From NCBI GenBank assembly GCA_028286835.1, contig JAQBQT010000025.1:1-47106 (forward strand): a stretch of 47,106 bases of DNA, given 5' to 3'. This document shows positions 10,101-42,309 of this stretch, one piece after another. Below the pieces are notes generated by a model that saw only the letters and a program-made list of their open reading frames with translations, was not told where the DNA came from and did not search any database. The stretch is from Candidatus Parcubacteria bacterium. GTDB taxonomy: Bacteria > Patescibacteriota > Minisyncoccia > Phycocordibacterales > PALSA-1337. A program made the position numbers and the translations under genes. The stretch's first letter is position 1. Every line of letters begins with the position of its first letter.

Positions 10101-10121
10101 CCGGAAGATTTCCATACATTC

Positions 10122-11345: not shown

Positions 11346-11348
11346 TTC

Positions 11349-13118: not shown

Positions 13119-13143
13119 TTTTTATCCATGCTAAAATATTCCT

Positions 13144-13755: not shown

Positions 13756-13758
13756 TCC

Positions 13759-26304: not shown

Positions 26305-26778
26305 CTACTTGCTGTCTTTCTTTTCCTTAAACTCCTTGGCTTTGCCTTCGACATCCTTCTTGGCCTTGGAGATGGTCTCTTCGATGTCATCGCCGATCTC
26401 TTCCCAGCGCTCACGGAGGCGGTCTGCCAATGCTGCCATTTCATCCTTGCTCACTCCTTCGAGGTCAGCATATTTCTCTTTGAGCAGGGCAGACATGTCG
26501 GCGTAGACTTCCTTGCTCGCTTCCGTAAGCTCGTTGCCGCGTTCCATCGCCTTGTCTTTGAGGTCCATAGCCTTATCCATGGCACGGTCTTTCATGTCGA
26601 GAGCCTTATCCTTGGCGTTGCCTGCAGCCTTCTTTATCTTTTCGCGCGTTTTGGCTCCGTCCTTCGTGCCATATAGATAGTAGGTGGCTACGGCTGCCGC
26701 AGCTGCTGCAGCGATGCCGACTCCTACGGCTGCGCCCTTTCCTGAAGATTTCTTTTCGAAAAGATGATTTTTGCTCAT
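26305..26778 (-). CDS. YtxH-like general stress protein
   Basis: Gly/Ala TM followed by YLYGTKDGAKTREKI and KDKA repeats. Confidence 0.7.
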   Translation of the reverse strand: MSKNHLFEKKSSGKGAAVGVGIAAAAAAAVATYYLYGTKDGAKTREKIKKAAGNAKDKALDMKDRAMDKAMDLKDKAMERGNELTEASKEVYADMSALLKEKYADLEGVSKDEMAALADRLRERWEEIGDDIEETISKAKKDVEGKAKEFKEKKDSK

Positions 26779-26799: not shown

Positions 26800-27060
26800 T
26801 TAGTTATAGCGCGAGATCAATCGACGGACAAACCTGAACAATGCCCGGGCGCCGAACGATTGCGTATGCAGGCGTTCCCGGAGATCGCCCAACTCTTCTA
26901 TGATGAATTCACCCTCTATCCGGGCCTTATCCGTGAGCTTTTTGACATTGGCGAGGATCTTGATGATGTATATCCAGGCGACAATGGCCAGAATCGTAAG
27001 GACTACGATGCAGATGGTCGTTATAAAGAAGAAGATGTCCGCGTGTATAAGGGTATTCAT
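26800..27060 (-). CDS. Small membrane protein (YtxG/DUF948-like)
   Basis: One TM plus coiled coil, immediately upstream of the YtxH-like gene. Confidence 0.65.
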   Translation of the reverse strand: MNTLIHADIFFFITTICIVVLTILAIVAWIYIIKILANVKKLTDKARIEGEFIIEELGDLRERLHTQSFGARALFRFVRRLISRYN

Positions 27061-27070
27061 TCAATTGGTG

Positions 27071-27098
27071 ATGACGTTTTGATAAGGGTGGTCTTACA
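27071..27098 (-). promoter_or_regulatory. Putative ECF sigma promoter
   Basis: Minus strand TGTAAG-N16-CGTCAT ending 10 nt before ATG 27060; same boxes as 41719-41746. Confidence 0.65.
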
Positions 27099-27130
27099 GT
27101 GCCTACTGATAGTATACTACACAGACATTC

Positions 27131-27589
27131 ATGGTAACCCCGGAACTCGTCTCCTATATCTACGCCGAACGCAAAAAGGGCGTGGCGGACCATATCATCA
27201 AAGCTTATCTCGCCACCCAGAATTGGAGCGAGGCGGATTTTTATGAAGCCGTACGAACCCTGCCTCCCCGGGGGAGTACTCCTGTAGGAAAGCCTGATGA
27301 GGCGGCCGAAGGCAAGATAAAAGGCGCCGACCTTCGGACCCTTGATCAGAATGCGGTCTGGCGGACGCCCGACGGCAAGGCAGATATGCCTGCTCGACCG
27401 GTCATCAAGGAACATAAGGGCCTCATTAAGGCCATAGTGCTTATTCTTCTTATTGTTATTTTAGGAGCTCTCATCTACCTATATAAGGACATCCTCTGGC
27501 CCATGATCCTCGGCTATTACGCTGAAGCCAAGCCCTTTCTGGATCAGGCCGTGACCGTCATCAGGATGGCGACCGACTTCAGCCATTAG
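27131..27589 (+). CDS. Hypothetical membrane protein
   Basis: N-terminal helical motif (ELVSYI...GV...IKAYL..QNWSEAD), one C-proximal TM. Confidence 0.7.
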   Translation: MVTPELVSYIYAERKKGVADHIIKAYLATQNWSEADFYEAVRTLPPRGSTPVGKPDEAAEGKIKGADLRTLDQNAVWRTPDGKADMPARPVIKEHKGLIKAIVLILLIVILGALIYLYKDILWPMILGYYAEAKPFLDQAVTVIRMATDFSH

Positions 27590-27601
27590 AAGCCTGCTTA
27601 T

Positions 27602-27630
27602 TTGATTATTTAGGCAATTTCCTGTATCTT
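27602..27630 (+). promoter_or_regulatory. sigma70-like promoter for fusA
   Basis: TTGATT-N17-TATCTT. Confidence 0.45.
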
Positions 27631-27720
27631 ACCCCTTACCTAAAGCAATCTCTGCTTTTTTAGTTTAGAGCGAGCGTTTGACCAAATTAATAGCAGCATA
27701 TAACAGTATTTAATCATTTT

Positions 27721-29865
27721 ATGAACCGCGATTATCCGCTTGAACGAGTCCGAAACTTCGGCATCATTGCCCACATCGATGCAGGCAAGACGACTACGTC
27801 TGAACGCATCCTTTACTACACCGGCATGATCCACAAGATCGGCGAGGTGCACGAAGGCGAGACCACGACCGACTGGATGGAACAGGAGCGCGAGCGCGGC
27901 ATCACCATCACGGCCGCCGCTATCACATGCTTCTGGAATCCGACCTATATGCCGGCGACAGATCTCTCCAAGAAAGTCCGTTTCAACATCATCGATACTC
28001 CGGGCCATATCGACTTCACTGTGGAAGTGAAGCGCTCCCTCCGCGTCTTGGACGGCGCAGTCGTCGTATTCGACGGCGTTGCCGGCGTTGAGCCTCAGTC
28101 AGAGACAAACTGGCGCTATGCAGACGAAAGCAATGTGCCTCGCCTCTGCTTCATCAACAAGATGGACCGAATGGGTGCCTCATTCGAGCGCTCATACGCT
28201 TCCATTCTCGACCGCCTCAACAAGAGGGCAGTCCGCTTCCAGCTCCCGATCGGTACCGAGAGCTCTCATGAAGGCGTCGTTGACCTCATGCGCATGAAGG
28301 CTTTCTTCTTCGAAGGCGAGAAGGGTATCAATATCATAGAGAAGGAGATCCCGGCAGACATGATGGATGACGCCAAGAAATACCGCGCAGAGATGGTCGA
28401 GAAGATCGTCGAGACAGACGATGCAGCTATGAGCGAGTTCCTCGAAGGCAAGGAGTTCACCATGGACGAGCTCAAGAAGCTCTGCCGCGCCGCAGTCATC
28501 GCCAACAAGATCTTCCCGGTCTTCACCGGCTCAGCCCTCAAGAACGTCGGCGTTCAGCTCGTGCTCGATGCCGTCGTCGACTATCTCCCGTCTCCTCTCG
28601 ATCTTCCTCCGGTCAAAGGCATCAACCCGAACACGGGCGAAGAGATCCTCCGCCATGCGTCCGATGAAGAGCCGTTCGCGGCGCTTGCCTTCAAGCTCCA
28701 GAACGACCCATTCGTCGGTCAGCTGACATTCTTCCGCGTCTACTCAGGCACCATCGAAGCAGGCACATATATATACAACGTCACGACAGGCAAGAAGGAA
28801 CGCCTCGGCCGCATCGTGCGCCTTCAGGCCGACAAGCGTGAAGAGGTCAAGAAGGTCTTCGCCGGCGAGATTGCCGCAGCCGTAGGCCTCAAGGACGCCC
28901 TCACATCTCACACATTCTGCGACGAAGCCAATCCTATCGTCCTCGAAGTCATCAAATTCATGGCACCGGTCGTCTCGCTCCGCATCGAGCCGAAGACAAA
29001 GGCCGACCAGGAGAAAATGGGTATGGCTCTCCGCAAGCTCGGCATGGAAGATCCGACGTTCCATATCTCTTCGAACCAGGAAACAGGCGAGACCATCATC
29101 TCAGGCATGGGAGAACTCCACCTCGAGATCATGGTTGACCGCATGAAGCGCGAGTTCGGCGTTGAAGCCAATGTCGGCGCGCCTCAGGTGGCATATCGCG
29201 AAACCATCCTCAACGAAGCCGAGGCCGAATACAAATATATCAAGCAGACAGGCGGTAAGGGTCAGTACGGCCACGTGCGTCTCTCAGTCCGTCCGATGGT
29301 CCCTCTCGTAGAAGGAGAGAAAGTCCCTAAGAACGTCAAGCGCTACGATGATTTCGAATTCATCAACTCCATCAAGGGTGGCGTCATTCCGAACGAATTC
29401 ATTCCGGCCGTCGAAAAGGGCGTCCGCGAAGCTCTCGATCGCGGTATCGTCGCTGGCTACAAGCTGGTGAATGTTTCCTGCGAGCTCACATTCGGTTCAT
29501 ATCACGACGTCGACTCGTCCGAGATCGCCTATAAGATCGCCGCGTCCCAGGCTTTCCAAGATGCAGCCAAGCGCGCCAAGCCGGTCATCCTTGAGCCGAT
29601 CATGAGGCTCGAAGTGGTCGCCCCTGAAAAATACATGGGTGATGTGAACGGCTCCGTCGCTTCCAAGCGCGGCCAGGTCGAGGGTTCCGAACCTCGCGGT
29701 CAGGCTATCGCCATTCATGCCAAGGTTCCGCTCTCAGAGATGTTCGGATATACGACACAGCTCCGCTCTATGACCTCAGGTCAGGGAAGCGCGATGATGG
29801 AATTCGATCACTACGAAGTGGTTCCGGCCAACGTGGCTCTCGAGATCGCAGAGAAAAGGAAATAA
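27721..29865 (+). CDS. fusA: Elongation factor G
   Basis: AHIDAGKTT, ERERGITI, DTPGH, NKMD, GMGELHLE, YHDVDSSE. Confidence 0.99.
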   Translation: MNRDYPLERVRNFGIIAHIDAGKTTTSERILYYTGMIHKIGEVHEGETTTDWMEQERERGITITAAAITCFWNPTYMPATDLSKKVRFNIIDTPGHIDFTVEVKRSLRVLDGAVVVFDGVAGVEPQSETNWRYADESNVPRLCFINKMDRMGASFERSYASILDRLNKRAVRFQLPIGTESSHEGVVDLMRMKAFFFEGEKGINIIEKEIPADMMDDAKKYRAEMVEKIVETDDAAMSEFLEGKEFTMDELKKLCRAAVIANKIFPVFTGSALKNVGVQLVLDAVVDYLPSPLDLPPVKGINPNTGEEILRHASDEEPFAALAFKLQNDPFVGQLTFFRVYSGTIEAGTYIYNVTTGKKERLGRIVRLQADKREEVKKVFAGEIAAAVGLKDALTSHTFCDEANPIVLEVIKFMAPVVSLRIEPKTKADQEKMGMALRKLGMEDPTFHISSNQETGETIISGMGELHLEIMVDRMKREFGVEANVGAPQVAYRETILNEAEAEYKYIKQTGGKGQYGHVRLSVRPMVPLVEGEKVPKNVKRYDDFEFINSIKGGVIPNEFIPAVEKGVREALDRGIVAGYKLVNVSCELTFGSYHDVDSSEIAYKIAASQAFQDAAKRAKPVILEPIMRLEVVAPEKYMGDVNGSVASKRGQVEGSEPRGQAIAIHAKVPLSEMFGYTTQLRSMTSGQGSAMMEFDHYEVVPANVALEIAEKRK

Positions 29866-29892
29866 TCTCAGCACCCTATAGCGCCTCAAAAG

Positions 29893-29918
29893 AAAAGCCG
29901 GCTTCTGCCGGTTTTTTT
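29893..29918 (+). terminator. Intrinsic terminator after fusA
   Basis: GCCGGC-TTCT-GCCGGT followed by TTTTTT. Confidence 0.75.
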
Positions 29919-29973
29919 GCACAGAAACTTTCCACTTGCGCGTACGTCATATAAGCATCACACTATATACCAT

Positions 29974-31476
29974 ATGAAAAAATATCTCATAGCCATCGCC
30001 GCAGTGCTCGTCGTCTCAGTCTCGTATGCCCACGCCCAGAATTACTCATATTCCCGTGATCTCTATATAGGATCATCAGGTCCTGACGTTGCTGCGCTGC
30101 AGAATTGGCTTCTCTCTAACGGATACGACATTCCTGCCTTGCGCGCAGGGATCACGCCTCAAGGCTATTTTGGTTTCCAGACGCAGGCGGCTCTCGCCCG
30201 CTATCAGGCATCAGTCGGCCTGCCTCCTAACGGATATTTCGGTGCGCTCACCCGCGCGCGCATGAATGGCTCTGTCGGGGGTTATCCCGGTACACCAACT
30301 CCAGTCCCTGTTCCCACCGCTTTTATAAGGGTAATGTCACCCAACGGAGGTGAAACCCTTCAGAGGGGAACTTCATATATGATCACTTGGACGAGTACAG
30401 GACTCTCACAGCAATGGCCAGGAACAGGCACCATAGAGCTCCAGCCTGCGCTTCCGGCCTGTGCCGAACCGACCCAGCCCATCCGCTGCATGATCATGGT
30501 GCGCGCTCCGTATCCTATCGCTCAGAATGTGAATCTCGCCTCTCAATCGTATTCATGGAGCGTTCCCGATGTTCTATCTTTGGGTGATCAGCCCCTGGGC
30601 AATCAGCCCATCCAGGCAGCTCCGGATGGCTCGTACAAGATAAAGATCTGTCAGACATCTACGAACATATGTGATACGAGCGATGCGTACTTCACGGTGA
30701 CATCATCTTCTGTTGGCGGAACAACGGGAGGTGCCGGCCCTCTCGCCATCGTCTCACCGAATGGCGGGGAATCATGGCAGAAAGGCAGCATCCAAACTAT
30801 CCGCTGGACCTCGCCGTATTATTTCCAGGCCGCCTATGGCGATATCAGGCTCGTCCGCTATATGCCTCCATGCTCCGGCATATGTCCTATGTATATGGTC
30901 GCTCCCTATACTATCGCAAGCAATATCAGCATAAATCAGAATTCTTACGCATGGACTGTTGGAGATGCGGCTCAGCAGGGCAGCACGAATGGTCAGCGCA
31001 TCACCGTGCCTGATGGTCAGTACACAGTTCAGATCTGCCAGACAGGCTCAGGATCATGTGTTTCAAGCACTGGCCCCTTCACTATATGTGGGGACACGAC
31101 AGTGAATCCTGGCGGACAGTCGCCTGTGATCTCAGGTGTCACCGCCCCTACCAGTCTTTCAATAGGGCAAACCAGTACATGGACTGTACGTGCATATGAT
31201 CCACTGAATGGCTCCCTTACATATTCTGTCGACTGGGGCGATCAGCCCCAGAACAATCCTTATTATCTGAGCGCCGCATCTTCTCCTCAGTTTGCCCAGA
31301 CAAGCTCATTCACGCATTCATATGCCAATCCCGGCACGTATCAGATCACGTTTACGGTCAGAAATGCGAGCGGCATGACCGCTCAGGCCAAAACGACCGT
31401 GAATGTAGGCGGGGTGAATTGCCCTCCAGGATACATGTGCGCCACTCGGTCGCCGTACATGACGCCGTACATATAG
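29974..31476 (+). CDS. Secreted protein: peptidoglycan-binding domain, two SPNGGE Ig-like repeats, PKD-like domain
   Basis: Signal peptide MKKYLIAIAA..AHA; DL.IGSSGPDVAALQ..GYFG; SPNGGE x2; YSVDWGD..HSYANPGTY. Confidence 0.85.
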   Translation: MKKYLIAIAAVLVVSVSYAHAQNYSYSRDLYIGSSGPDVAALQNWLLSNGYDIPALRAGITPQGYFGFQTQAALARYQASVGLPPNGYFGALTRARMNGSVGGYPGTPTPVPVPTAFIRVMSPNGGETLQRGTSYMITWTSTGLSQQWPGTGTIELQPALPACAEPTQPIRCMIMVRAPYPIAQNVNLASQSYSWSVPDVLSLGDQPLGNQPIQAAPDGSYKIKICQTSTNICDTSDAYFTVTSSSVGGTTGGAGPLAIVSPNGGESWQKGSIQTIRWTSPYYFQAAYGDIRLVRYMPPCSGICPMYMVAPYTIASNISINQNSYAWTVGDAAQQGSTNGQRITVPDGQYTVQICQTGSGSCVSSTGPFTICGDTTVNPGGQSPVISGVTAPTSLSIGQTSTWTVRAYDPLNGSLTYSVDWGDQPQNNPYYLSAASSPQFAQTSSFTHSYANPGTYQITFTVRNASGMTAQAKTTVNVGGVNCPPGYMCATRSPYMTPYI

Positions 31477-31507
31477 GCCCGTTCGTTCTCCCCAAAAGGG
31501 TAATAAT

Positions 31508-31635
31508 TTGCACGTTTCTTTCGCGTATGCTAACCTGAGCTTTACGCGCTTCCTAAGCGTTTTTATTAGTCCCCATTAATAATTTATCTTTGACTCTCGC
31601 TGCTTGGCATCACGCCCAGACAATGCGAGTCAAAG
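31508..31635 (+). promoter_or_regulatory. tuf promoter and hairpin leader
   Basis: TTGCAC-N17-TAACCT with TG; GCGCTT-CCT-AAGCGT-TTTT; long stem CTTTGAC (31588)...GTCAAAG (31635). Confidence 0.45.
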
Positions 31636-31653
31636 CACTAAATCAATAATCAT

Positions 31654-32841
31654 ATGGCAGCAGAATTCAATCGCACAAAGCCGCACGTTAACGTCGGTAC
31701 CATCGGTCACATCGACCACGGAAAGTCGACGCTCACGGCAGCTATCGTCGCAGTTCAGGCCCGCAAAGGCATGGCCAAAGAGAAGGCTTACGCCGAAATT
31801 ACAAAGGGTGGTACCGTCCGCGATGCTTCAAAGACAGTCACTATCTCTCTTTCTCATGTTGAGTACGAGAGTAACAAGCGCCACTACGCTCACATCGACG
31901 CTCCAGGCCACGCCGACTATATCAAGAACATGATCACAGGTGCCGCCCAGATGGACGGAGCCATTCTCGTGGTTTCCGCTCTCGACGGCGTTATGCCTCA
32001 GACGCGTGAGCACATCCTTCTCGCCGAGCAGATCGGTGTTCCGAAGGTAGTTATCTTCCTCAACAAGTGCGATGCAGTCGAGGAAAAGGACCTTATCGAC
32101 CTCGTGGAGGAAGAAGTGCGTGACCTCCTTACGAAGTATCACTTTGACGGCAAGAATGTCCCGGTCATCCGCGGCTCAGCCCTCAAGGCCCTCGAGAACG
32201 ATCCAGCATGGAATGCAAAGATCGACGAGCTTATGGATGCTCTCGATAGCTACATCCCTGATCCGATCCGTGAAGTAGATAAGCCGTTCCTCATGCCGAT
32301 CGAAGACATCTTCTCGATCGAAGGCCGTGGAACAGTGGTCACAGGCCGCATCGAGCGCGGTGTTATCAAGGTAGGTGAAGAAGTCGAGATCGTCGGCTTC
32401 CGCGACACCGTCAAGACGACCATCACTGGCATCGAGATGTTCAACAAGTCCCTCAAGGAGGGTATGGCAGGCGACAACGCAGGTCTTCTTCTCCGCGGCA
32501 CAGCCAAGGACGACGTATCCCGCGGTCAGGTTCTCGCCAAGACTGGCTCAGTCAAGCCTCACACAGAGTTCGAGGCCGAAGTATATATCTTGAAGAAAGA
32601 AGAGGGAGGCCGCCACACGCCGTTCTTCACAGGATATAAGCCTCAGTTCTATATCCGCACGACAGACGTTACAGGTGAAGTGACTCTCGCCGAAAAGGTT
32701 GAGATGGTCATGCCGGGTGACACAGTGACCTTCAAGGTGAAGCTCGTCGCTCCGGTCGCTCTCGAAGCCCCTCAGCGCTTTGCAGTCCGCGAAGGAGGCA
32801 AGACAGTAGGTTCAGGCGTCATTACTAAAGTAGTCGCATAA
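31654..32841 (+). CDS. tuf: Elongation factor Tu
   Basis: [48 protein letters not shown]. Confidence 0.99.
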
Positions 32842-32868
32842 AGCACGCTTTACCGCACGCATAATCAT

Positions 32869-33252
32869 ATGGCAGCCGCAAAGGAAACAACAAAGAAAGC
32901 AGCAGCAAAGCCGGTCCGCGCCAAAAAGGCAAAGGCTGAAGGAGCTGCTCCGCACCTCAGGATCCGAGTGCGCGCCTATGAGCACAAGATTCTCGACGCA
33001 TCCCTCCGCCAGATCATGGACACTGCCGCCCGCTACGATGCAGAGATCAACGGCCCTGTTCCGCTTCCGACAGAGATCAAGAAGTACACAGTCAACCGTT
33101 CCTCATTCATCGACAAGAATGCCCGCGAGCAGTTCGAGATGCGCGTACACAAGCGTCTCATCGACATTGTGAACCCGAATCCGAAGGTCATCGAGGCGTT
33201 GACGAACCTCAGCTTGCCTTCAGGCGTGAATATAGACGTAAAAATGATGTAG
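32869..33252 (+). CDS. rpsJ: 30S ribosomal protein S10
   Basis: GPVPLPT, AREQFEMRVHKRLIDI; Ala/Lys N-terminal extension. Confidence 0.98.
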   Translation: MAAAKETTKKAAAKPVRAKKAKAEGAAPHLRIRVRAYEHKILDASLRQIMDTAARYDAEINGPVPLPTEIKKYTVNRSSFIDKNAREQFEMRVHKRLIDIVNPNPKVIEALTNLSLPSGVNIDVKMM

Positions 33253-33274
33253 ACGAGAGTCTCTCCCCACCGAC

Positions 33275-33886
33275 ATGAAATTCATTACCGGACGAAAACT
33301 GAATATGACTCAGATCTATAGCGAGAAGGGCGAAGCCATTCCTGTCACGGCTGTTGTCGTCCGCGGCAACGTCGTCACCCAGATCCGCACGAAGGACGTA
33401 GATGGCTACGAAGCAGTGCAGATCGGCGAAGGCTCCCGCAATCCGAACCGCATCGCCAAGCCGCAGAAAGGCCAGTTCAAGGATCTCGGCAGCTTCGCCT
33501 TCGTCAAGGAATTCCGCATGGAATCCCCGAGCATGAAGGTCGGCGACAAGATCGAGCTCTCCCAGTTCAAGGCAGGGGACATGGTCGAGGTGAGCGCCAT
33601 CTCCAAGGGCAAGGGCTTCCAGGGCGTGGTCAAGCGCCACGGCTTCCATGGCGGTCCCCGCACTCACGGTCAGAAGCACTCCGAGCGCGAACCGGGCTCC
33701 ATCGGCGGAGGTCTCCGCAACCGCGTGCCGGTCGGCATGCGCATGGCCGGCCGCATGGGCTCAGACCGCATCACGGTGAGGAATCTCAAGGTCGTTCATA
33801 TTGACCAAGACGACAGCATCCTGTATGTTTCTGGAGCGATTCCAGGACGCCGCGGCACTCTCGTAGAGATCGTCGCCGAAAAATAA
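33275..33886 (+). CDS. rplC: 50S ribosomal protein L3
   Basis: DGYEAVQIG, SKGKGFQGVVKRHGF, PGSIG, MAGRMG. Confidence 0.98.
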   Translation: MKFITGRKLNMTQIYSEKGEAIPVTAVVVRGNVVTQIRTKDVDGYEAVQIGEGSRNPNRIAKPQKGQFKDLGSFAFVKEFRMESPSMKVGDKIELSQFKAGDMVEVSAISKGKGFQGVVKRHGFHGGPRTHGQKHSEREPGSIGGGLRNRVPVGMRMAGRMGSDRITVRNLKVVHIDQDDSILYVSGAIPGRRGTLVEIVAEK

Positions 33887-33912
33887 TCCCTATCATCCTT
33901 ACTCCCACTATC

Positions 33913-34566
33913 ATGGACGCCCCTATTTATAATCAGCAAGGCCAGTCAGCAGGCAAAATAACCCTTCCTAAGGGGATCTTCGACCTGAACTGGAATGCCG
34001 ACCTTGTCCACGAGATCATCCGTCTCATGAACTCGAATTCGCGTTCTCCGGTCGCTCATGCCAAGACTCGCGGAGAAGTCCGCGGTGGCGGTAAGAAGCC
34101 ATGGCAGCAGAAGGGTACAGGCCGCGCCCGTCACGGTTCCTCACGTTCGCCTATCTGGGTCGGTGGTGGTACGACCCACGGTCCGCGCAACGAAAAGAAT
34201 TTCGAGCGCAAGATCAACAAGAAGGCCCGCTCCAAGGCTCTCCTCACGATCCTTTCACGCAAGTTCAAGGATGGCGAAGTACTTTTCATCGATTCGTTCA
34301 GCTTCAATGCGCCAAAGGCAAAGGAGGCAAAGACGATCCTCACTTCGCTTTCCAAGATCAAAGGCTATGAGAAGCTCGCCACCAAGAAGGTGAACACGGC
34401 CATGATCACGATGGACAAGAAGTCCGACTCCGTCTCCAAGAGTTTCCGCAATTTCGGAAACATCTCGGTCGAGGAGTTCCGCAACATCAACCCGGTATCG
34501 CTCATGAACCATACGTACCTCATCATTTCCAATCCAGCCGAGTCCCTTAAGACCCTTGCTAAATAA
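33913..34566 (+). CDS. rplD: 50S ribosomal protein L4
   Basis: KTRGEVRGGGKKPWQQKGTGRARHGS. Confidence 0.98.
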   Translation: MDAPIYNQQGQSAGKITLPKGIFDLNWNADLVHEIIRLMNSNSRSPVAHAKTRGEVRGGGKKPWQQKGTGRARHGSSRSPIWVGGGTTHGPRNEKNFERKINKKARSKALLTILSRKFKDGEVLFIDSFSFNAPKAKEAKTILTSLSKIKGYEKLATKKVNTAMITMDKKSDSVSKSFRNFGNISVEEFRNINPVSLMNHTYLIISNPAESLKTLAK

Positions 34567-34573
34567 AACTACC

Positions 34574-35065
34574 ATGCCGATGTTCTGGTCAAAAAAATCA
34601 AAAGCCGACAAAAACTACAGCGAAGCCGCAGCGCCCGCCAAGGCTAAGAACGTAGGTTCTAAGAACGCTCCGGCAAAGGCTCGCGTAGCCAAGTCGACTG
34701 CCGCCAAGGCGGTCAAAGCCCCAAAGAAGTCCCAAGGACGATCTGGGGGATCGGAAGTCGTCCTTTCGACAGGCACTCCTTCCGCCTCGTTCATCGGCGC
34801 AGATGCCATTCTCCGCCCACATATCACCGAGAAGGCCGGACAGCTCGCCCAGAACAACGTGTATACATTCCAGGTCTCCAAGGATGCAAACAAGCCGACT
34901 ATCGCCAAGGCCATCTTCAGCCTCTATAAGGTCAAGCCGACGAAGATCGCGGTCATCAACCTTCCGTCCAAGAATGTCTTCGTGAAGGGCCGCTGGGGCG
35001 TTGTCTCAGGAACCCGCAAGGCCATGGTCACCCTGAAGAAAGGGGACAAGATAGATTTTGTATAA
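34574..35065 (+). CDS. rplW: 50S ribosomal protein L23 with long Ala/Lys N-terminal extension
   Basis: PHITEKA, YTFQV, ANK..I, RKAMVTLKKG; start at 34574 or 34580. Confidence 0.93.
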   Translation: MPMFWSKKSKADKNYSEAAAPAKAKNVGSKNAPAKARVAKSTAAKAVKAPKKSQGRSGGSEVVLSTGTPSASFIGADAILRPHITEKAGQLAQNNVYTFQVSKDANKPTIAKAIFSLYKVKPTKIAVINLPSKNVFVKGRWGVVSGTRKAMVTLKKGDKIDFV

Positions 35066-35086
35066 TCCCGCATCCATTTAATTATC

Positions 35087-35941
35087 ATGAAAACCTACCG
35101 ACCTACAACAAAGTCCCGCCGCAATATGACGACACTCCCGTTCAAGGAGTATCTCACTGCTTCAGAGCCGTACAAGCCTTTGACGCTCGGCTTCAAGCGC
35201 GACATGGGACGCAATGCGCACGGCCGCATCACGGTCCGCCACAAGGGAGGAGGCCATAAGAAGCTCTATCGCATCATCGATTTCTTGTACGAGAAGAAAG
35301 ATATCATCGCCACGATCAAGACCGTCGAATACGATCCGTTCCGCACCGGCTACATCGGCCTCGTCTCCTATAAGGACGGCGCAAAGCGCTACATCCTCCT
35401 TCCGAAGACAATGAAGGTCGGCAATTCCTTCATCGTTTCCGAGAAAGCTCCGATCGAGACAGGCAACCGCCTTCCTCTCAAGAATATCCCGGTCGGTACG
35501 TTCGTATACAACGTCGAGATCAAGCCAGGCTCAGGGGCCAAGCTCGTACGCTCTGCCGGGTCCTTCGGCCAGGTCATCGCTAACGACGCAGGCTACACCC
35601 ACATCAAGATGCCTTCGACGGAAGTCCGCAAAGTCCACCAGGACGCATGGGCATCAATCGGAGCTGTTTCCAACGAAGAGAATCGCCTCGTCAATATCGG
35701 CAAAGCCGGACGCTCGCGCTGGATGGGTATCCGCCCGACAGTCCGCGGTACCGCCCAGAACCCGGTAGACCACCCATACGGTGGTGGTGAACAGCGCCAG
35801 GGCCGCGGTCTCCGCCGCCTCAAGACCCGCTGGGGTAAGCCAGCCGGCAAGGGCCAGAAGACCCGCACTCCGAAGAAGTACTCCAACGTATTCGTGGTGT
35901 CCCGCCGCCAGCCTGGCCGCCTCATGAGGAGCGGTTCGTAG
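35087..35941 (+). CDS. rplB: 50S ribosomal protein L2
   Basis: GRITVRHKGGGHK, EYDPFR, RPTVRG, NPVDHP.GGGE. Confidence 0.99.
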   Translation: MKTYRPTTKSRRNMTTLPFKEYLTASEPYKPLTLGFKRDMGRNAHGRITVRHKGGGHKKLYRIIDFLYEKKDIIATIKTVEYDPFRTGYIGLVSYKDGAKRYILLPKTMKVGNSFIVSEKAPIETGNRLPLKNIPVGTFVYNVEIKPGSGAKLVRSAGSFGQVIANDAGYTHIKMPSTEVRKVHQDAWASIGAVSNEENRLVNIGKAGRSRWMGIRPTVRGTAQNPVDHPYGGGEQRQGRGLRRLKTRWGKPAGKGQKTRTPKKYSNVFVVSRRQPGRLMRSGS

Positions 35942-35983
35942 TCTCTCCGCAGGCCTTTTCGCCTGATCTCCGTCGCGACGCCT

Positions 35984-36106
35984 ATGAGCGATCCGAAACC
36001 ACAACAGAAAAAACTCCGGGAGCACTCGCCTATGATCGGCTTCTTCGTCAAAAGGGTGAAGGCATTCGTCGAATTCCTGATATATTCCATCGTAGGGAAG
36101 AAGTAG
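35984..36106 (+). CDS. Candidate 40-aa small protein (not in the ORF track)
   Basis: MSDPKPQQKKLREHSPMIGFFVKRVKAFVEFLIYSIVGKK*; fills the gap and ends 8 nt before the next ATG. Confidence 0.45.
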   Translation: MSDPKPQQKKLREHSPMIGFFVKRVKAFVEFLIYSIVGKK

Positions 36107-36114
36107 CTCTTTCC

Positions 36115-36627
36115 ATGAAGAGATTCAACATCAATTACGCGCATCTAGTCGCCGCCCTGCTTGGCGGGCTTTATTTTTTCTCATGCGCGGTCAATCCCAC
36201 ATTCGGCCACCTCATCGACTATGTCGATCTCGTCATCCATGAAGCAGGACATGTGTTCATGGCCCCGTTCGGCATGTTTATATATATTCTTGGCGGTTCA
36301 GCTTTCCAGGTCGTCGTCCCGAGCCTTTTTGTCGGCTATTTTTACTTCAGGCGTGAATATTTTTCGGCCTCGATGATCCTGTTGTGGGTCGGATACAACA
36401 TCGTGAACATCTCGGCATACATGGGCGACGCAGTATCGACGCAGATGCTCCTATTGGGAGGGGAGGGAGTCATCCATGACTGGAATTATCTTCTGTCGGC
36501 ACTAGGAGTGCTCGACTATACGCATGACCTGGCCTCGATAACGCACGGGTTCGGCATGGCCGTTATGATAGCCGCAGCCGCCTTCTGCCTCAAATTCAGC
36601 TTCAGCAACGAAGCGCATAAGGTATAA
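36115..36627 (+). CDS. Membrane HExxH protein (M50-like putative zinc metalloprotease)
   Basis: IHEAGH in a TM segment, GGSAFQ, YMGDA, HDWNYLL. Confidence 0.75.
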   Translation: MKRFNINYAHLVAALLGGLYFFSCAVNPTFGHLIDYVDLVIHEAGHVFMAPFGMFIYILGGSAFQVVVPSLFVGYFYFRREYFSASMILLWVGYNIVNISAYMGDAVSTQMLLLGGEGVIHDWNYLLSALGVLDYTHDLASITHGFGMAVMIAAAAFCLKFSFSNEAHKV

Positions 36628-36636
36628 TATCTTTCA

Positions 36637-37050
36637 ATGAAGTATTTTCGCCTCGAGAAGGCCGGCTCGTTCACTACATGGAGGATATTGGTGAATTTCT
36701 GGAGCGTCGTCCTCTTTGCTGCGATAATCTACGATTTCTTTACGACCAATAGCCTTTCCGAGCACGAGATCCTGTTGGCGATCTCAGCCATCTACGGCGC
36801 AGCCCTGGCGATATATAGTGCGGAAAAGGAATTCCGCCGATGGCACCGCATGCATACGTCGCTCCATCCGGGAGAGCTATACGCGGTATTGTGGACGATC
36901 CTTATCGTCGCTCTCATCGTCGGGACCATTGCATATAATCCTTCATACCATCTTCCGGCTGAAGTCAGCGCCGCTTATATCGGCGTGATCGGTATACTCG
37001 CTATCACGCGCGAATCGAAGAACTTCTACAGAAGGCGCGAGAAAAAATAA
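36637..37050 (+). CDS. Hypothetical 4-TM membrane protein
   Basis: Four hydrophobic segments; TATAAT 8 nt before ATG. Confidence 0.75.
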   Translation: MKYFRLEKAGSFTTWRILVNFWSVVLFAAIIYDFFTTNSLSEHEILLAISAIYGAALAIYSAEKEFRRWHRMHTSLHPGELYAVLWTILIVALIVGTIAYNPSYHLPAEVSAAYIGVIGILAITRESKNFYRRREKK

Positions 37051-37089
37051 AACCAAATAAAACCAGCGGAGTAAGGCCGACCGTATCTG

Positions 37090-37872
37090 CTAATTTGCGA
37101 GGGGAAGTATGAGGCTGAATGTGGATCCTTTGCCAACTCCTTCCGAATAGGCCTGGATGCTTCCGCCGTGCCGTTTCATAACACTCTGTGCCAGGAATAG
37201 CCCTACGCCAAGGCCTTCCGTGTCCATGGACTGAGCATCCTTGGTCCGATAGAACTTGCTGAACATGTGCGACAAGTTGTGCGGGTCGATACCTATTCCA
37301 TTGTCCGTGACGGACAGGATGGCCTTGCGCTTGTTCACGGTTATATCTACCGAGATGTTGCGGCCCGGAGGGGTATAGGAGCAGGCGTTCTCCATGAGCG
37401 TGCCGATGACGAAATCCAAACGCGGCCGGTCTGCTTTGACCATGACTTCAGGCTGAACGCTGGTGAGGGACATGAAGAGGTTCTTTTCATGGAATGCGGT
37501 CTTTGATGTTTCCATGATGCTGCGGGCAAGATCGCAGAGATTGAGGACCTCGAAATTATATGTCGAGTGGCCCTTGCCCGCGGCGTCCGTGAGCTCGACC
37601 AGCGTGCCGGTGAGCTTGATGAGATTCTCATTGGATTTTCTCAGGTCATCGAGCTGCTGCTTCTTATATTGGTCCTGCTCTTCAGTGATAAGCCCTTCAG
37701 TGGTCCACTTGATCTGGGTGAGGGGAGTGCGGAATTTATGAGCGATGATGGTGATGAACTCATACTTCAGGCTCTCGTTCTCGCGCAGCTTGCGGTATAT
37801 GATGACTCCGACAAGGCTCGTGACCGCTACGATGACGATTGCTGCGAGAGAAATAAGGATGAGTGTGTCCAT
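37090..37872 (-). CDS. Orphan histidine kinase (TM-HisKA-HATPase_c)
   Basis: H-box AHKFRTPLT, N-box ENACSYT, DNGIGI, F-box FSKFYR, GLGVGL, GKGSTF. Confidence 0.93.
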   Translation of the reverse strand: MDTLILISLAAIVIVAVTSLVGVIIYRKLRENESLKYEFITIIAHKFRTPLTQIKWTTEGLITEEQDQYKKQQLDDLRKSNENLIKLTGTLVELTDAAGKGHSTYNFEVLNLCDLARSIMETSKTAFHEKNLFMSLTSVQPEVMVKADRPRLDFVIGTLMENACSYTPPGRNISVDITVNKRKAILSVTDNGIGIDPHNLSHMFSKFYRTKDAQSMDTEGLGVGLFLAQSVMKRHGGSIQAYSEGVGKGSTFSLILPLAN

Positions 37873-37936
37873 GGAAGATAATGTGAGAAATATATCATTC
37901 AGTATATCACTAGTAGCAGGGAGGACATACCTAAAT

Positions 37937-37990
37937 TTGACGGCCTAAAACCGCTATGCTACGATAGCCCAACAAGCTCTTCGGAGCTGT
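37937..37990 (+). promoter_or_regulatory. Internal promoter and UUCG hairpin before rpsS
   Basis: TTGACG-N17-TACGAT with TG; AGCTC-TTCG-GAGCT. Confidence 0.6.
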
Positions 37991-38001
37991 TTTAATTCAC
38001 T

Positions 38002-38352
38002 ATGCCTAGGTCACTCAAAAAAGGGCCATACGTCGAGGAGATCCTCCTCAAGAAAATTGCCGGCAAAAAGCCAGGCAGTTTGCCTGCGATCAAAACGTGG
38101 GCACGCCGCTCTCAGATTTCACCGGAAATGGTGGGATTCACATTTGGCGTTCACAACGGCAGGCAGCATCTGGATGTATTGGTCACCGAGGATATGGTTG
38201 GACACCGCCTCGGTGAATTTGCGCTTACCCGCAAGTTCGTCCGCCACGGTGGCAAGATGCAGAAGGAGATCGAAATGAAGGCCAAGGAGGCCGAGATCGC
38301 ATCTGCACAGGCCGCCAAGGGAGCCGCTGCTGACGCCTCAGCCAAGAAATAA
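38002..38352 (+). CDS. rpsS: 30S ribosomal protein S19
   Basis: [28 protein letters not shown]. Confidence 0.99.
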
Positions 38353-38361
38353 CATACTCCC

Positions 38362-38739
38362 ATGATCACCGCCTCACTTCAGAACTACAGGATCTCGCCG
38401 CGAAAAGTACGCCTCGTTGCGGATATGATCCGCGGCAAGACCGTTGCTGAGGCCAAGATCATCCTTACGCACGCTTCCAAGAAGGCGCGTCACCCTATCC
38501 ATGACCTCATAGACTCAGCTGTAGCCAACGCCTCGCACAATTTCAAGATCGACAACACAGCCTTGTTCGTGAAGGAGATCCGCGTAGATCAGGGATATGT
38601 CCTCAAGCGCTCGATCCCGATGGCCCGCGGTTCAGCATTCCCGATGAAGAAGCGCACAAGCCACGTCAAAGTGGTCCTTGCTCCGGTCGTCGAGAAGGCC
38701 TCCAAGAAGAAGGCTGTCGCAGCCCCAAAGACCAAATAA
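38362..38739 (+). CDS. rplV: 50S ribosomal protein L22
   Basis: ISPRKVRLVADMIRG, SAVANA, KRTSHV. Confidence 0.98.
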   Translation: MITASLQNYRISPRKVRLVADMIRGKTVAEAKIILTHASKKARHPIHDLIDSAVANASHNFKIDNTALFVKEIRVDQGYVLKRSIPMARGSAFPMKKRTSHVKVVLAPVVEKASKKKAVAAPKTK

Positions 38740-38743
38740 TTTT

Positions 38744-39424
38744 ATGTCACACACCGTACATCCATATTCACACCGCTTGGGCATCATCCGCGATTGGCGC
38801 AGCCGCTGGTTCTCCATGCACAAGAGCTACCGCACGTCTCTCAAGACGGACGTCCTCATCCGCGAATTCCTTCAGGTCGAGCTCCGACCGTTCTATCTCG
38901 GCGGCATCGAAATAGAGCGCACCCAGAAGACGCTCCGTGTCGTCATCAAGACTTCGCGCCCAGGCATGCTCATCGGCAAGACCGGTGACGGCGTCGTCAA
39001 GCTCCGCGCAAAGATCCTCAAGCTTCTCCGCAAGGAAAAGATCGACCTCGGCACCCAGGAGCTCAAGCTCGACATCGAAGAGATCCGCAACCCGGAGGGA
39101 AGCGCCGCCATCATAGGCCTTATGATCGCCGAATCTCTCGAGAAGCGCCTCCCGTTCCGCCGTGTCATGAAGCAGACGATCGAGAAGATCATCGCCAACA
39201 AGGAAGTGAAGGGTGTCCGCATCTATCTCGGCGGTCGCTTGGGCGGCGCTGAGATCGCCCGCTCCGAAGAGATGAAGAGGGGACGCGTTCCGCTTCAGAC
39301 CCTTCGCGCCGACATCGATTTCGCCCGCGAAAAGGCCCACATGACGTATGGCGACATCGGCATCAAGGTCTGGATCTACAAGGGTCAGGTCTTCAAGAAG
39401 GACCAGAAGGATGGCGCCAAATAA
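38744..39424 (+). CDS. rpsC: 30S ribosomal protein S3 (start reassigned to 38744)
   Basis: HPYSHRLGI, RPGMLIGK, GRLGGAEIAR, GRVPLQTLRADID. Confidence 0.98.
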   Translation: MSHTVHPYSHRLGIIRDWRSRWFSMHKSYRTSLKTDVLIREFLQVELRPFYLGGIEIERTQKTLRVVIKTSRPGMLIGKTGDGVVKLRAKILKLLRKEKIDLGTQELKLDIEEIRNPEGSAAIIGLMIAESLEKRLPFRRVMKQTIEKIIANKEVKGVRIYLGGRLGGAEIARSEEMKRGRVPLQTLRADIDFAREKAHMTYGDIGIKVWIYKGQVFKKDQKDGAK

Positions 39425-39439
39425 TTTTCATATACTCCC

Positions 39440-39865
39440 ATGATTTTCCCCAAAAAAGTTAAATACAGGAAGTGGTTCACCATGCGCCAGCATCCTGATA
39501 AGGAGGCTTCCCATGCAGATACCCGCGGAACGACATTGGCGTTCGGCTCATACGGCCTCAAGGCTGTGAAGTACGCCCGTATCACGTCGAACCAGCTTGA
39601 AGCTGCCCGCAAGGTCATCGCCCACTCCGCAACGAAATCCGGTAAGATCTGGATCCGCGTCTTCCCGGACCATCCGTATACTCAGAAGCCTGCCGAAGTA
39701 AAAATGGGAAAAGGAAAGGGTGATCCTCAGGGCTTCATCGCCGAGGTCAAGCCGGGCCGCATCATGTTCGAGATCGACGGCGTCGAGCCGAAGGTCGCCG
39801 CAGAGGCGCTCCGCAAGGCTGGAACCAAGCTTCCGGTCAAGACCAAGATCATCAGCCGCGCATAA
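39440..39865 (+). CDS. rplP: 50S ribosomal protein L16
   Basis: QLEAAR, IWIRVFPD, MGKGKG, KLPVKT. Confidence 0.98.
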   Translation: MIFPKKVKYRKWFTMRQHPDKEASHADTRGTTLAFGSYGLKAVKYARITSNQLEAARKVIAHSATKSGKIWIRVFPDHPYTQKPAEVKMGKGKGDPQGFIAEVKPGRIMFEIDGVEPKVAAEALRKAGTKLPVKTKIISRA

Positions 39866-39876
39866 TACATACCTTT

Positions 39877-40092
39877 ATGAAGATGAAAGAAATCACAACT
39901 AAGACCTCCACTGACCTGCAGAAGATGCTCGGCGACAAGCGCGAAGCCCTCCGCGTATTCCGCTTCGGCGCCGCCGGTGCCAAGAGCAAGAACGTCAGGG
40001 AAGGCAGGGCTATCCGCAAGGATATCGCACGCATGCTTACGGCTATGACCGCGCAGAAGGCTGCGGCCAAGAGCGCCCCGGCGAAGAAATAA
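39877..40092 (+). CDS. rpmC: 50S ribosomal protein L29
   Basis: LRVFRF, IRKDIARMLT; position between rplP and rpsQ. Confidence 0.92.
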   Translation: MKMKEITTKTSTDLQKMLGDKREALRVFRFGAAGAKSKNVREGRAIRKDIARMLTAMTAQKAAAKSAPAKK

Positions 40093-40133
40093 AGTAGACA
40101 AAGCATCAATATTCACGTAGACTCCAAATTCAC

Positions 40134-40397
40134 ATGGCCAACAACACCGTACAAGAGAATAAGACCGAAGTTCGCCGCCAGACATTCACTGGTACGGTGG
40201 TTTCTGCGAAGATGAAGGATACCTGCGTCGTCGAGGTCAAGCGCTACATCAAGCACTCCGTGTACGGCAAGTTCATGAACAAGAGCACCAAGCTCATGGC
40301 TCACGATCCAGGCAACACAAAGAAAGAAGGGGACAAGGCCACGGTCGAAGCATGCCGCCCACTATCCAAGCGTAAGAACTTCAAAGTCATCGCCTAA
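40134..40397 (+). CDS. rpsQ: 30S ribosomal protein S17
   Basis: GTVVSAKMKDT, H..YGK, AHD, CRPLSKRK. Confidence 0.97.
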   Translation: MANNTVQENKTEVRRQTFTGTVVSAKMKDTCVVEVKRYIKHSVYGKFMNKSTKLMAHDPGNTKKEGDKATVEACRPLSKRKNFKVIA

Positions 40398-40418
40398 TAC
40401 GCGATCCATTTCAATACC

Positions 40419-40790
40419 ATGATACAGCCACGTTCTATCGTAAATATCGCAGATAACTCAGGAGCCAAGATCGGCCGCATCTTCAAGGTGCTCGGAGCTT
40501 CCAAGAAGCGCTATGCCGAGCTCGGCGAGATCGTCGTGCTTTCAGTGCAGAAGGCGGAGCCTCGCAAAGCCGTGAAGAAGAAAGACGTTCTCCATGCCGT
40601 CGTCGTCCGCCAGGTCAAGGCTACCCGCAGAAAGGATGGCTCATACGTGCGCTTCGATGAGAACGCAGTCGTCATCATCGAGAAAGGCAAGAAGGAGCCG
40701 ATCGCCGGACGTATCTTCGGCCCGATCCCGCGCGAGATCCAGGAAGCAGGTTTCAAGACCATCGCTTCTCGCGCAGCCGAAATAGTGTAA
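40419..40790 (+). CDS. rplN: 50S ribosomal protein L14
   Basis: ADNSGAK, RRKDGSYVRFDENA, RIFGP. Confidence 0.99.
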   Translation: MIQPRSIVNIADNSGAKIGRIFKVLGASKKRYAELGEIVVLSVQKAEPRKAVKKKDVLHAVVVRQVKATRRKDGSYVRFDENAVVIIEKGKKEPIAGRIFGPIPREIQEAGFKTIASRAAEIV

Positions 40791-40811
40791 CCTCCAATTT
40801 TAATTACTACC

Positions 40812-41102
40812 ATGCATATCAAGAAAGGAGATCTCGTGACCGTTCGCTCAGGCGATGACAAAGGCAAGACAGCCAAGGTCATCATGGCTCTTCCGCGCGA
40901 GAACAAAGTCGTCGTCGAAGGCGTTAACGTCATGAAGAAGCACCAGCGTCCGATGGGCCAGGGCAAGAAGGGATCTCTTGTCGAGGTCGCCATGCCTATG
41001 TCGGTCTCCAACCTCATCAAGGCTGACGAGGCTAAGAAAGAGGCCAAGGAATCCAAGGCCGAGGCCAAAAAAGAGCCTAAGAAGGACTCTAAGAAGAAAT
41101 AA
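40812..41102 (+). CDS. rplX: 50S ribosomal protein L24
   Basis: IKKGD.V.V.SGDDKGK, VVVEGVN; C-terminus is an E/K-rich tail. Confidence 0.96.
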   Translation: MHIKKGDLVTVRSGDDKGKTAKVIMALPRENKVVVEGVNVMKKHQRPMGQGKKGSLVEVAMPMSVSNLIKADEAKKEAKESKAEAKKEPKKDSKKK

Positions 41103-41110
41103 ATACCACC

Positions 41111-41680
41111 ATGACCACCGCATATAAAACAACGCAGGAGCTCAACAAGACTTCATTCAAGGCATTGAAGGATACGCTCGCGCTCGCGAATCCGATGCAG
41201 GCTCCGCGCCTCATGAAGATCGTCGTTTCGAGCGGTTTCGGTTCCATCAAGGACAAGAAGAAGATCGAGATCATCGCTGACCGCCTTGCCAGGATCACTG
41301 GCCAGAAGCCTGCTACCCGCGTCACCAAGAAGGCTATCGCTACATTCAAGACCCGCGTAGGCGATCCTGTCGGCTACCAGATCACTCTCAGGGGGAACCG
41401 CATGAATGAATTCTTCGACCGCTTGGTCCATATCGCCTTGCCTCGCACAAAGGACTTCCGCGGCCTCTCGAGGACTGCCATCGATGATATGGGCAACTAC
41501 ACGCTCGGCATCCGCGAACACACGATTTTCCCTGAAACGGCCGACGAAGACCTCAAGGACGTATTCGGCCTTTCCATCACCCTCGTCACCTCATCCCGAG
41601 ACAAGAAAGCCACATTGGCCTTCCTGGAATACCTCGGTTTGCCCCTCAAGCGCGAAGAAAGCACCAAAAGCTCAAAATAG
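41111..41680 (+). CDS. rplE: 50S ribosomal protein L5
   Basis: NPMQAPRL, ITGQKP, TLRG, LPRTKDFRG, GNYTLG. Confidence 0.98.
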   Translation: MTTAYKTTQELNKTSFKALKDTLALANPMQAPRLMKIVVSSGFGSIKDKKKIEIIADRLARITGQKPATRVTKKAIATFKTRVGDPVGYQITLRGNRMNEFFDRLVHIALPRTKDFRGLSRTAIDDMGNYTLGIREHTIFPETADEDLKDVFGLSITLVTSSRDKKATLAFLEYLGLPLKREESTKSSK

Positions 41681-41718
41681 GGTATAGTATAAATACAGGG
41701 CAGCGCCTTTCTTATTCA

Positions 41719-41746
41719 TGTAAGAAACCGCCCGTCCGACCGTCAT
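41719..41746 (+). promoter_or_regulatory. Putative autoregulatory ECF promoter
   Basis: TGTAAG-N16-CGTCAT immediately before the sigma ATG at 41749. Confidence 0.6.
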
Positions 41747-41748
41747 TT

Positions 41749-42309
41749 ATGTCGAACCACGATTCGCTGCAATTAACCTTCGACAAGCTGTTCCAGTCCG
41801 AAGCAGACGCTATATTCAGGTTCTGCGTCTTAAGGGTATCGGATAGGGAACAGGCGCGGGATCTCGTTCAGGAGACGTTCGTACGTCTCTGGCAGACGCT
41901 TCAGAAAGGGACGGAAATGACCAACGCACGGGCATTTCTCTTCACTGTAGCTCACAGGCTCATCATTGACTGGTACCGCAAGAAAAAGGCGGTTTCAATG
42001 GAAAGCCTATCGGACGAGGCCACCGATGAATCATATGATCCGGCAGATGAAGGAACTCTCCCGGACAATCTCGAATTGGGGTCAGAAGGCCGCTTTCTTA
42101 TGAGCAAGATCAAAGAATTGAATGACTCCTATCGTCAGGCGGTATTTTTAAGATATGCGGAGGGGCTTTCTCCACCGGAGATAGGCAAAGTCCTGGGCAT
42201 ATCGGCGAACGCCGCATCAGTGAGGGTCAACCGCGGGATCCAGGAATTGCGGCAATTGACCGGGTACGATATCATGGAGTCCGAACAACCATCTCCTTCG
42301 AATACATAA
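41749..42309 (+). CDS. ECF-type sigma70 factor
   Basis: Region 2 DLVQETFVRLW..RAFLFTVAHRLIIDWYRK; region 4 EGLSPPEIGKVLGIS..SVRVNRG. Confidence 0.93.
   Translation: MSNHDSLQLTFDKLFQSEADAIFRFCVLRVSDREQARDLVQETFVRLWQTLQKGTEMTNARAFLFTVAHRLIIDWYRKKKAVSMESLSDEATDESYDPADEGTLPDNLELGSEGRFLMSKIKELNDSYRQAVFLRYAEGLSPPEIGKVLGISANAASVRVNRGIQELRQLTGYDIMESEQPSPSNT

Follow-up and report, generated by a model that had tools for sequence, protein, structure and literature searches.

A putative extracytoplasmic function (ECF)-type promoter word at envelope-type insertions in the ribosomal gene cluster of a Parcubacteria bacterium

Locus and motif sites

The window analysed here is a stretch of 47,106 nucleotides from a Candidatus Parcubacteria bacterium (contig JAQBQT010000025.1 of assembly GCA_028286835.1), and the scan of the source genome covered this 47-kb window. 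The subject of the analysis is a two-box word, TGTAAG-N16-CGTCAT, which resembles a promoter of the extracytoplasmic function (ECF) type, together with the gene of an ECF sigma factor, P0001, that has a copy of the word directly upstream. The G+C content of the window is 54%, and the names carried by sigma homologs and related loci indicate a genome of the Parcubacteria/Paceibacteria type. The str/S10/spc ribosomal cluster, from S12 to SecY, spans 25.3–47 kb and is interrupted by four insertions. Between the S7 and EF-G genes lie, on the minus strand, genes for a YtxH protein of 157 residues (26305–26778) and a membrane protein of 86 residues (26800–27060) and, divergent on the plus strand, a membrane protein of 152 residues (27131–27589). 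The EF-G/EF-Tu insertion is a plus-strand gene for a secreted protein with peptidoglycan-binding (PG_binding_1), Ig-like and PKD domains (29974–31476), referred to below as the PG-binding/PKD gene. A histidine kinase and two small membrane proteins are encoded between L2 and S19, and the insertion between L5 and S14 consists of the sigma gene (41749–42309) followed by the gene of a single-pass membrane protein of 159 residues, P0002 (42318–42797), both on the plus strand.

The word occurs in exactly two copies in the window, at 41719–41746 on the plus strand (site W1) and at 27098–27071 on the minus strand (site W2), precisely where a first-pass annotation of this DNA had reported it. At W1, TGTAAG occupies 41719–41724 and CGTCAT 41741–41746, which leaves 2 nt to the sigma ATG at 41749; the site sits in the 68-nt intergenic gap directly upstream of the sigma gene. 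At W2, TGTAAG occupies 27098–27093 and CGTCAT 27076–27071, and 10 nt separate CGTCAT from the ATG at 27060 of the 86-residue open reading frame (ORF), with the 157-residue ORF next in line, again as first annotated. The seventh base is also common to the two copies, and the word can be written TGTAAGA-N15-CGTCAT. By direct reading the two spacers are identical at 6/16 positions, in keeping with their earlier description as unrelated. A third site, W3 (AGAAAC-N16-CGTCAT, 29923–29950, plus strand), lies 23 nt upstream of the PG-binding/PKD ATG at 29974; its −10 box and spacing are those of W1 and W2 and its −35 box is a variant.

Other readings of these sequences were tried and rejected. TGTAAGA was ruled out as a sigma-70 extended −10 element, the hexamer being TAAGAA or TAAGAC at W1 and W2, without the final T. 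A promoter of the sigma-28 type was ruled out on two grounds: P0001 is a two-domain ECF protein, and the −10 box of the word differs from that of the sigma-28 consensus. A second ECF-type site upstream of the sigma gene was also discarded, as TGAAAC at 41533–41538 is 21 nt from CGTA and too distant. An Rfam scan of the window for known RNA elements gave 0 matches, and no larger repeat or mobile element was found around the sites.

The EF-G gene is followed on the plus strand by a terminator (29898–29918), read directly as the hairpin CCGGC-TTCT-GCCGG and then seven T, with the same stem recorded on the minus strand in the scan; this hairpin lies just upstream of W3. A weak hairpin of five pairs with a T-rich tail is located at 41697–41709, between the L5 stop codon and W1. 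The weak hairpin before W1 and the strong terminator before W3 suggest a partial insulation between the inserted units and the ribosomal operon. Upstream of the S14 gene there is a sigma-70-like element, TTGACG-17-TAGTAT with TG in front (42801–42829, plus strand; a consensus match only), which would restart the ribosomal operon past the insertion. In the 70-nt gap between the 86-residue gene and the divergent 152-residue gene, a near-palindrome, GTAGTATACTAT, at 27099–27130 yields a TATACT box that lies back to back with the −35 box of W2 and 12 nt upstream of the ATG on the plus strand.

The sigma factor and its membrane neighbour

P0001 (186 residues, 41749–42309, plus strand, between the L5 and S14 genes) is an ECF sigma factor, as had been claimed. 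It scores 88.1 bits against a cutoff of 42.9 for TIGR02937 and matches PF04542 (Sigma70_r2) at residues 14–80 and PF08281 (Sigma70_r4_2) at residues 119–167, the two-domain build of ECF group 4. Its DxxR motif, D74-W-Y-R77, is invariant in 23/23 aligned sequences. The start MSNHDS is common to homologs and F11 is invariant, which confirms the ATG at 41749; a later start codon was ruled out, as homologs have the same N-terminus and the first in-frame alternative (ATG, GTG or TTG) comes at codon 57. There are 683 homologs; among the 119 matches listed, identity ranges from 55 to 87% and some are named Parcubacteria or Paceibacterota. Judged by these matches, the family appears to be widespread in Parcubacteria. 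Named ECF equivalogs (SigW, SigM, SigX, SigZ, SigE and others) were not recovered: every specific NCBIfam model shown fell far under its cutoff, the best being NF058625 (82.2 against 130) and SigZ (81.7 against 168.65).

P0002 (159 residues, 42318–42797, plus strand) starts 8 nt after the sigma stop codon and is a candidate anti-sigma factor. Pfam and NCBIfam-type profile scans gave no family and no known anti-sigma domain for it, and a word-based search found no homologs. An exhaustive search found four relatives of 300–310 residues, which match residues 1–102 of P0002 and have DUF5667 C-terminal to the membrane helix. P0002 resembles a shortened member of this family of about 305 residues, with the N-terminal domain, membrane helix and C-terminal tail kept and about 150 residues, including DUF5667, gone. 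If it is an anti-sigma factor, it would be one without an outer sensing domain.

A complex of the sigma factor with P0002 residues 1–72 was modelled, with scores of 0.72, 0.73 and 0.72; the best of three controls scored 0.00. The mark used for such models is reached by 58/80 solved complexes and by 2/110 mismatched pairs. The predicted local distance difference test (pLDDT) of the partner is at least 59 and the contact agreement at least 63%. In the model, P0002 residues 4–34 contact sigma residues 8–48 and 108–118, between the two sigma domains, and in known anti-sigma complexes the anti-sigma factor likewise lies between the two domains. The model supports binding of P0002 to P0001; sigma/anti-sigma complexes have already been solved, and the pass may reflect likeness to those.

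Candidate target genes

The genes downstream of W2 had been described as a YtxG/YtxH-like pair. The YtxH assignment is secure: P0004 (157 residues, 26305–26778, minus strand) matches PF12732 with 47.3 bits against a cutoff of 37.5 (E = 2.8e-12). P0003 (86 residues with an N-terminal membrane helix, 26800–27060, minus strand) itself gives no Pfam match to DUF948 (PF06103) up to E = 5. Within its family 10/32 members match DUF948 weakly (best E 3.1e-4) and two relatives are named YoxC by JGI; an Atlas search gave a lead only (0.84). From these weak matches of its relatives, P0003 is plausibly a DUF948/YtxG/YoxC-like protein. The PG-binding/PKD gene has its real start at the ATG at 29974, from which a signal peptide is read (MKKYLIAIAAV...).

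Conservation in related genomes

Relatives were collected by a genome contig search with ribosomal protein L4 as the query, chosen so that one 20-kb locus covers both sites. The search found 478, of which the best 80 were kept (L4 identity 60–82%); these loci total 1,188,757 nt and were scanned on both strands. Their titles are mostly Taylorbacteria, Parcubacteria and Paceibacterota, with many Saccharibacteria. Specified beforehand from the window, the 13-nt word TGTAAGA-N15-CGTCAT has two matches in the 80 loci, where a composition model expects 0.043 (Poisson P = 9e-4). Markov simulations of the loci gave no match in 58/60 cases and one match in 2/60.

Both exact matches stand before orthologs of the PG-binding/PKD gene, one 22 nt upstream of the ATG at 5149 in locus L008 (5099–5126) and the other 21 nt upstream of the ATG at 53 in locus L017 (4–31). 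Near-copies precede orthologs of the same gene in L014 (5592–5619; TGTAATA-N15-CGTCAT) and L015 (1938–1965; TGTAAGA-N15-CGTTAC). Together with W3, these sites precede 5/6 orthologs of the PG-binding/PKD gene, with the boxes kept and the spacers different. Kept boxes with divergent spacers are what selection on a two-box site would be expected to look like.

Because W3 precedes the PG-binding/PKD gene of the window as the corresponding sites do in the orthologs, the window holds three sites, one per inserted unit, and three insertions, not two, carry sites. The idea that the insertions share an envelope regulon is strengthened by the conservation of the word before an envelope gene in relatives, and it extends to this third insertion. 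A relaxed pattern finds three matches in the window where 0.07 are expected, one before each of the inserted units of envelope type; the pattern was derived from these sites and the test is circular.

The 86-residue/YtxH pair has a single ortholog in the 80 loci, in L004, at the S7/EF-G position as in the window. The gene divergent from the 86-residue ortholog in L004 (3587–3800), which reads MTKMKLTPVIKRDKNWFIAWIKEIPG... when translated by eye, is unlike the 152-residue gene of the window, and tblastn with the 152-residue protein gave no match in L004. The surroundings of the pair are therefore variable.

Interpretation

We interpret TGTAAGA-N15-CGTCAT as a conserved ECF-type promoter of a Taylorbacteria-like Parcubacteria lineage, one that would be read by P0001 with P0002 as its restraint, and give this a probability of about 0.6. 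As the comparison of loci indicates, we are very probably dealing with a real, conserved promoter-like element of the ECF type that is linked to envelope genes. Its assignment to the neighbouring P0001 is made with much the same confidence as the interpretation as a whole, on the basis of adjacency, the DxxR motif and general knowledge. From the word, its cross-genome conservation, the protein families and the modelled sigma/P0002 interface we infer the promoter role, the reading sigma factor and every start site given below. The ECF promoter form recognized in the first-pass annotation agrees with that of mapped ECF promoters in spacing and in the CGTC −10 box, as these are described in the available excerpts of two reports (PMC3397946, PMC5758882).

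A number of observations weigh against this interpretation. The −35 boxes of W1 and W2 end in AAG, the usual form being AAC, and the −35 box of W3 differs from TGTAAG at 3/6 positions. The word was found post hoc, by inspection. Set against background frequency in the window, the exact word stands out, with two matches against 0/100 shuffles with any match, a control that applies to a word fixed in advance; with up to two mismatches there are four matches against 2.77 expected and no wider enrichment. A 6-N16-6 word that recurs elsewhere in the window is present in 567/1272 (45%) of its 68-nt stretches. In the 70-nt regions upstream of 58 genes, two further independent gene pairs have a 6-N16-6 word in common; genes 19 and 21 have four such words in common, in DNA of low complexity. 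At least one common word arose in 361/2000 (18%) of the shuffled upstream sets. As post hoc controls give shared words this often, the recurrence of W1 and W2 proves little by itself and is not significant post hoc.

The same controls are what would be seen if the identity of W1 and W2 were due to chance, W1 having no function and the conserved element before the PG-binding gene being real and unrelated to the sigma gene; a predicted start inside the sigma ORF at W1, described below, fits that account as well. We regard it as quite improbable, since W1 is an exact copy of the cross-genome 13-nt word, seventh base included, for which 0.043 matches are expected per 1.19 Mb, and since it lies in a 68-nt gap directly upstream of a gene whose family is the only one known to read words of this kind.

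The conservation is also incomplete. The sixth PG-binding/PKD ortholog, in L036, has only a TATAAT box upstream. In L004, the pair is preceded by TGTAAT-N16-CGGCCT-N10-ATG, in which the register is kept and the −10 box is damaged, without the T of CGT. The relaxed pattern shows no enrichment across the 80 loci, with 10 matches against 1–14 in 10 simulations. Homologs of P0001 or P0002 were found in 0/80 loci (tblastn, E ≤ 1e-4, 10-kb flanks of L4); in the closest relatives, L001–L015, there are large inserts after L2 and the 10-kb flank stops short of L5. Both L5 and S14 are present in 34 loci, 20 of them with gaps of 45–259 nt and 14 with inserts of 571–2936 nt of unrelated cargo. The sigma insertion at L5/S14 is therefore either specific to a lineage or limited to close relatives for which the loci stopped too soon. 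The L5/S14 junction is an insertion hot spot (L018, L019, L024, L026, L033, L034, L036, L037, L040, L051, L055, L062, L063 and L075), and its cargo ORFs include, by eye, ORF6N/KilA-N-type proteins or transposases, a 706-residue secreted protein and others.

That relatives with the word show no sigma gene within 10 kb on either side of L4 bears on whether the word, as an ECF-type promoter, is read by another alternative sigma factor encoded elsewhere, the copy at P0001 then reflecting cross-regulation or coincidence. The 47 kb of genome in view and the poor placement of W1 for autoregulation leave room for such a factor. P0001 is, on the other hand, the sole sigma factor in view, it has an exact copy of the word directly upstream, and its DxxR motif is of the kind linked to the reading of CGTC in the excerpted report (PMC3397946). 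The apparent spread of its family in Parcubacteria (55–87% identity among the matches listed) fits a main alternative sigma factor, and we consider a different reader unlikely.

Start sites were predicted with the last C of CGTC taken as −10 (PMC3397946); in the available excerpt of Todor et al., the start is 9–10 nt past the flipped −10 base (PMC7776599). The predicted +1 is at about 27063 for W2, 3 nt upstream of the ATG, and at about 29958 for W3, with a leader of 16 nt. The short W2-to-ATG distance is in line with the genome, in which sigma-70 −10 boxes lie 6–12 nt upstream of many ATGs and Shine–Dalgarno sequences are rare. For W1 the predicted +1 is at about 41754, 5 nt past the first base of the sigma start codon (41749) and inside the ORF, which is a further difficulty for the interpretation. 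ECF sigma factors are described as requiring near-consensus promoters, and about half of them as autoregulating (PMC7776599). As its predicted start lies inside an ORF whose ATG is confirmed by homologs, W1 is hard to reconcile with a simple promoter for positive autoregulation; the start there may be atypical, or the site may have some other role. Taken as a whole, the first-pass interpretation is supported in part: the ECF-type word, the protein families and the conservation speak for it, and simple positive autoregulation fits poorly.

The position of W1 also matters for the proposal that the word is no promoter and serves as an operator for a DNA-binding regulator, for example an unseen response regulator of the histidine kinase at 37090–37872. 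At W1 the word overlaps the position at which it would block a start site or start codon, and sigma-70-like −10 boxes are found downstream of the word at W3 and in L008, L014 and L015, as if it modulated another promoter. The distance from the word to these −10-like boxes nevertheless varies from 6 to 13 nt, no regulator gene adjoins, and a period of 22 bp between boxes, with the spacer free to vary, is typical of −35/−10 pairs and not of dimer sites. Nor are the two boxes palindromic or convincingly repeated in direct orientation, and this speaks against a regulator that binds as a dimer. An operator therefore seems to us very unlikely.

Proposed mechanism

If the word is an ECF-type promoter read by P0001, then P0002, encoded 8 nt downstream, probably keeps the sigma factor inactive at the membrane. 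On release of the sigma factor, the holoenzyme would start about 3 nt upstream of the ATG of the DUF948-like/YtxH pair at W2, giving a nearly leaderless mRNA, and about 16 nt upstream of the ATG of the secreted PG-binding/PKD protein at W3. W1 would be a true instance of the word that lies too near the ATG for a translatable sigma mRNA under the usual geometry.

A negative-feedback role for W1, which we think rather unlikely, would have the site placed on purpose: sigma-dependent transcripts would begin a few bases inside the sigma ORF and could yield anti-sigma factor and no sigma factor. The anti-sigma gene has an AT-rich start region of its own, and basal sigma factor would be supplied by read-through of the ribosomal operon. 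Were this true, active sigma factor would raise its inhibitor and not itself, and the result would be a self-limiting pulse tied to ribosomal-protein transcription.

The type of regulon is ordinary and the mechanism is textbook; the setting inside a ribosomal gene cluster is unusual. To our knowledge, next to nothing is known of how Parcubacteria and other bacteria of the candidate phyla regulate their genes, and a literature search found no paper on ECF sigma factors in these organisms. Taken together, the candidate word and three candidate target units (the sigma/anti-sigma locus itself, the DUF948-like/YtxH membrane pair and the secreted peptidoglycan-binding protein) would be a first regulon open to testing in these uncultivable organisms. 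What is gained is a concrete in vitro test and no new principle.

Other features of the window

Most genes of the window have no Shine–Dalgarno sequence (for example those starting at 25751, 38362, 39440, 40419, 41111 and 43541), and GGAG-like sequences occur at a few genes (3120–3410 and S14 at 42947). The 10–15 nt upstream of ATGs are poor in G and rich in A, T and C, as in tactactATG, atactcccATG and aataccaccATG. TAnnnT boxes are found 6–12 nt upstream of many first-in-operon ATGs, and their closeness to these start codons suggests that leaderless or very short-leader mRNAs are frequent in this genome.

The histidine kinase between L2 and S19 (260 residues, HisKA and HATPase_c, 37090–37872, minus strand) has no sensor or membrane region and no adjoining response regulator, and several close relatives keep it at that same position. 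The stretch 8352–15249 is a type IV pilus block that encodes a PilB-like ATPase, a PilC-like platform protein and two prepilin-type proteins with N_methyl motifs; TIM, PGK, RecJ, RNase H, ComEC and SOD are encoded downstream of it.

Several ribosomal ORFs (32869–33252, 34556–35065, 44441–45133 and 45135–45716) extend N-terminally past their Pfam domains, which begin at residue 31 in S10, 83 in L23, 81 in S5 and 77 in L15. The long L23 ORF begins at TTG and may be called too early. The L30 gene usually sits between those of S5 and L15; there is no ORF between these two genes in the window.

Comparison with known systems

By profile scores, P0001 is no equivalog of Bacillus SigW (72.1 bits, cutoff 209), SigM (58.3, cutoff 199) or SigX (61.1, cutoff 260). 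Among solved ECF structures the best match by sequence is Mycobacterium tuberculosis SigE (9m9d_F, E = 6e-16), followed by B. subtilis SigW (5wuq_A, 2e-14) and M. tuberculosis SigL (6dv9_F, 9e-14), with both domains covered in each case. The likeness of P0001 to solved SigE, SigW and SigL is distant and implies no common regulon or signal.

The pair downstream of W2 is like B. subtilis ytxG-ytxH in that a DUF948-like small membrane protein is encoded beside a YtxH protein. The B. subtilis general stress pair is reportedly under sigma-B, whereas an ECF-type word lies upstream of the pair in the window, where P0003 is also below Pfam significance for DUF948.

Bacillus sigma-W, -X, -M and -V read promoters with an AAC −35 box and a CGTA, CGTC or CGAC −10 box, according to the available excerpt (PMC5758882). 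Their operons are autoregulated, with the membrane anti-sigma factor included, and their targets act on the cell envelope (PMC5758882). The word matches the AAC/CGT(A/C) class of these promoters in form (PMC5758882), and the window departs from the Bacillus systems in that the −35 box has AAG in place of AAC and that P0002 lacks a known anti-sigma domain.

In the excerpted account of Tt-RpoE1 from Thermoanaerobacter tengcongensis, the promoter has a −35 box TGTTAC at −35 to −30 and a critical −10 box CGTC at −13 to −10, with the start determined by primer extension (PMC3397946). Its −35 box ends in AC and its mapped start is 39 nt upstream of the start codon, whereas the −35 box of the word in the window ends in AG and the start predicted at W1 is 5 nt inside the ORF (PMC3397946). 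The two promoters are alike in their TGT-type −35 box, 16-nt gap and CGTC −10 box (PMC3397946). A DxxR motif in region 2.4 of Tt-RpoE1 reads the −12G of CGTC (PMC3397946), and the two loci correspond in having this motif in the sigma factor and an anti-sigma gene, a candidate one in the window, directly downstream (PMC3397946).

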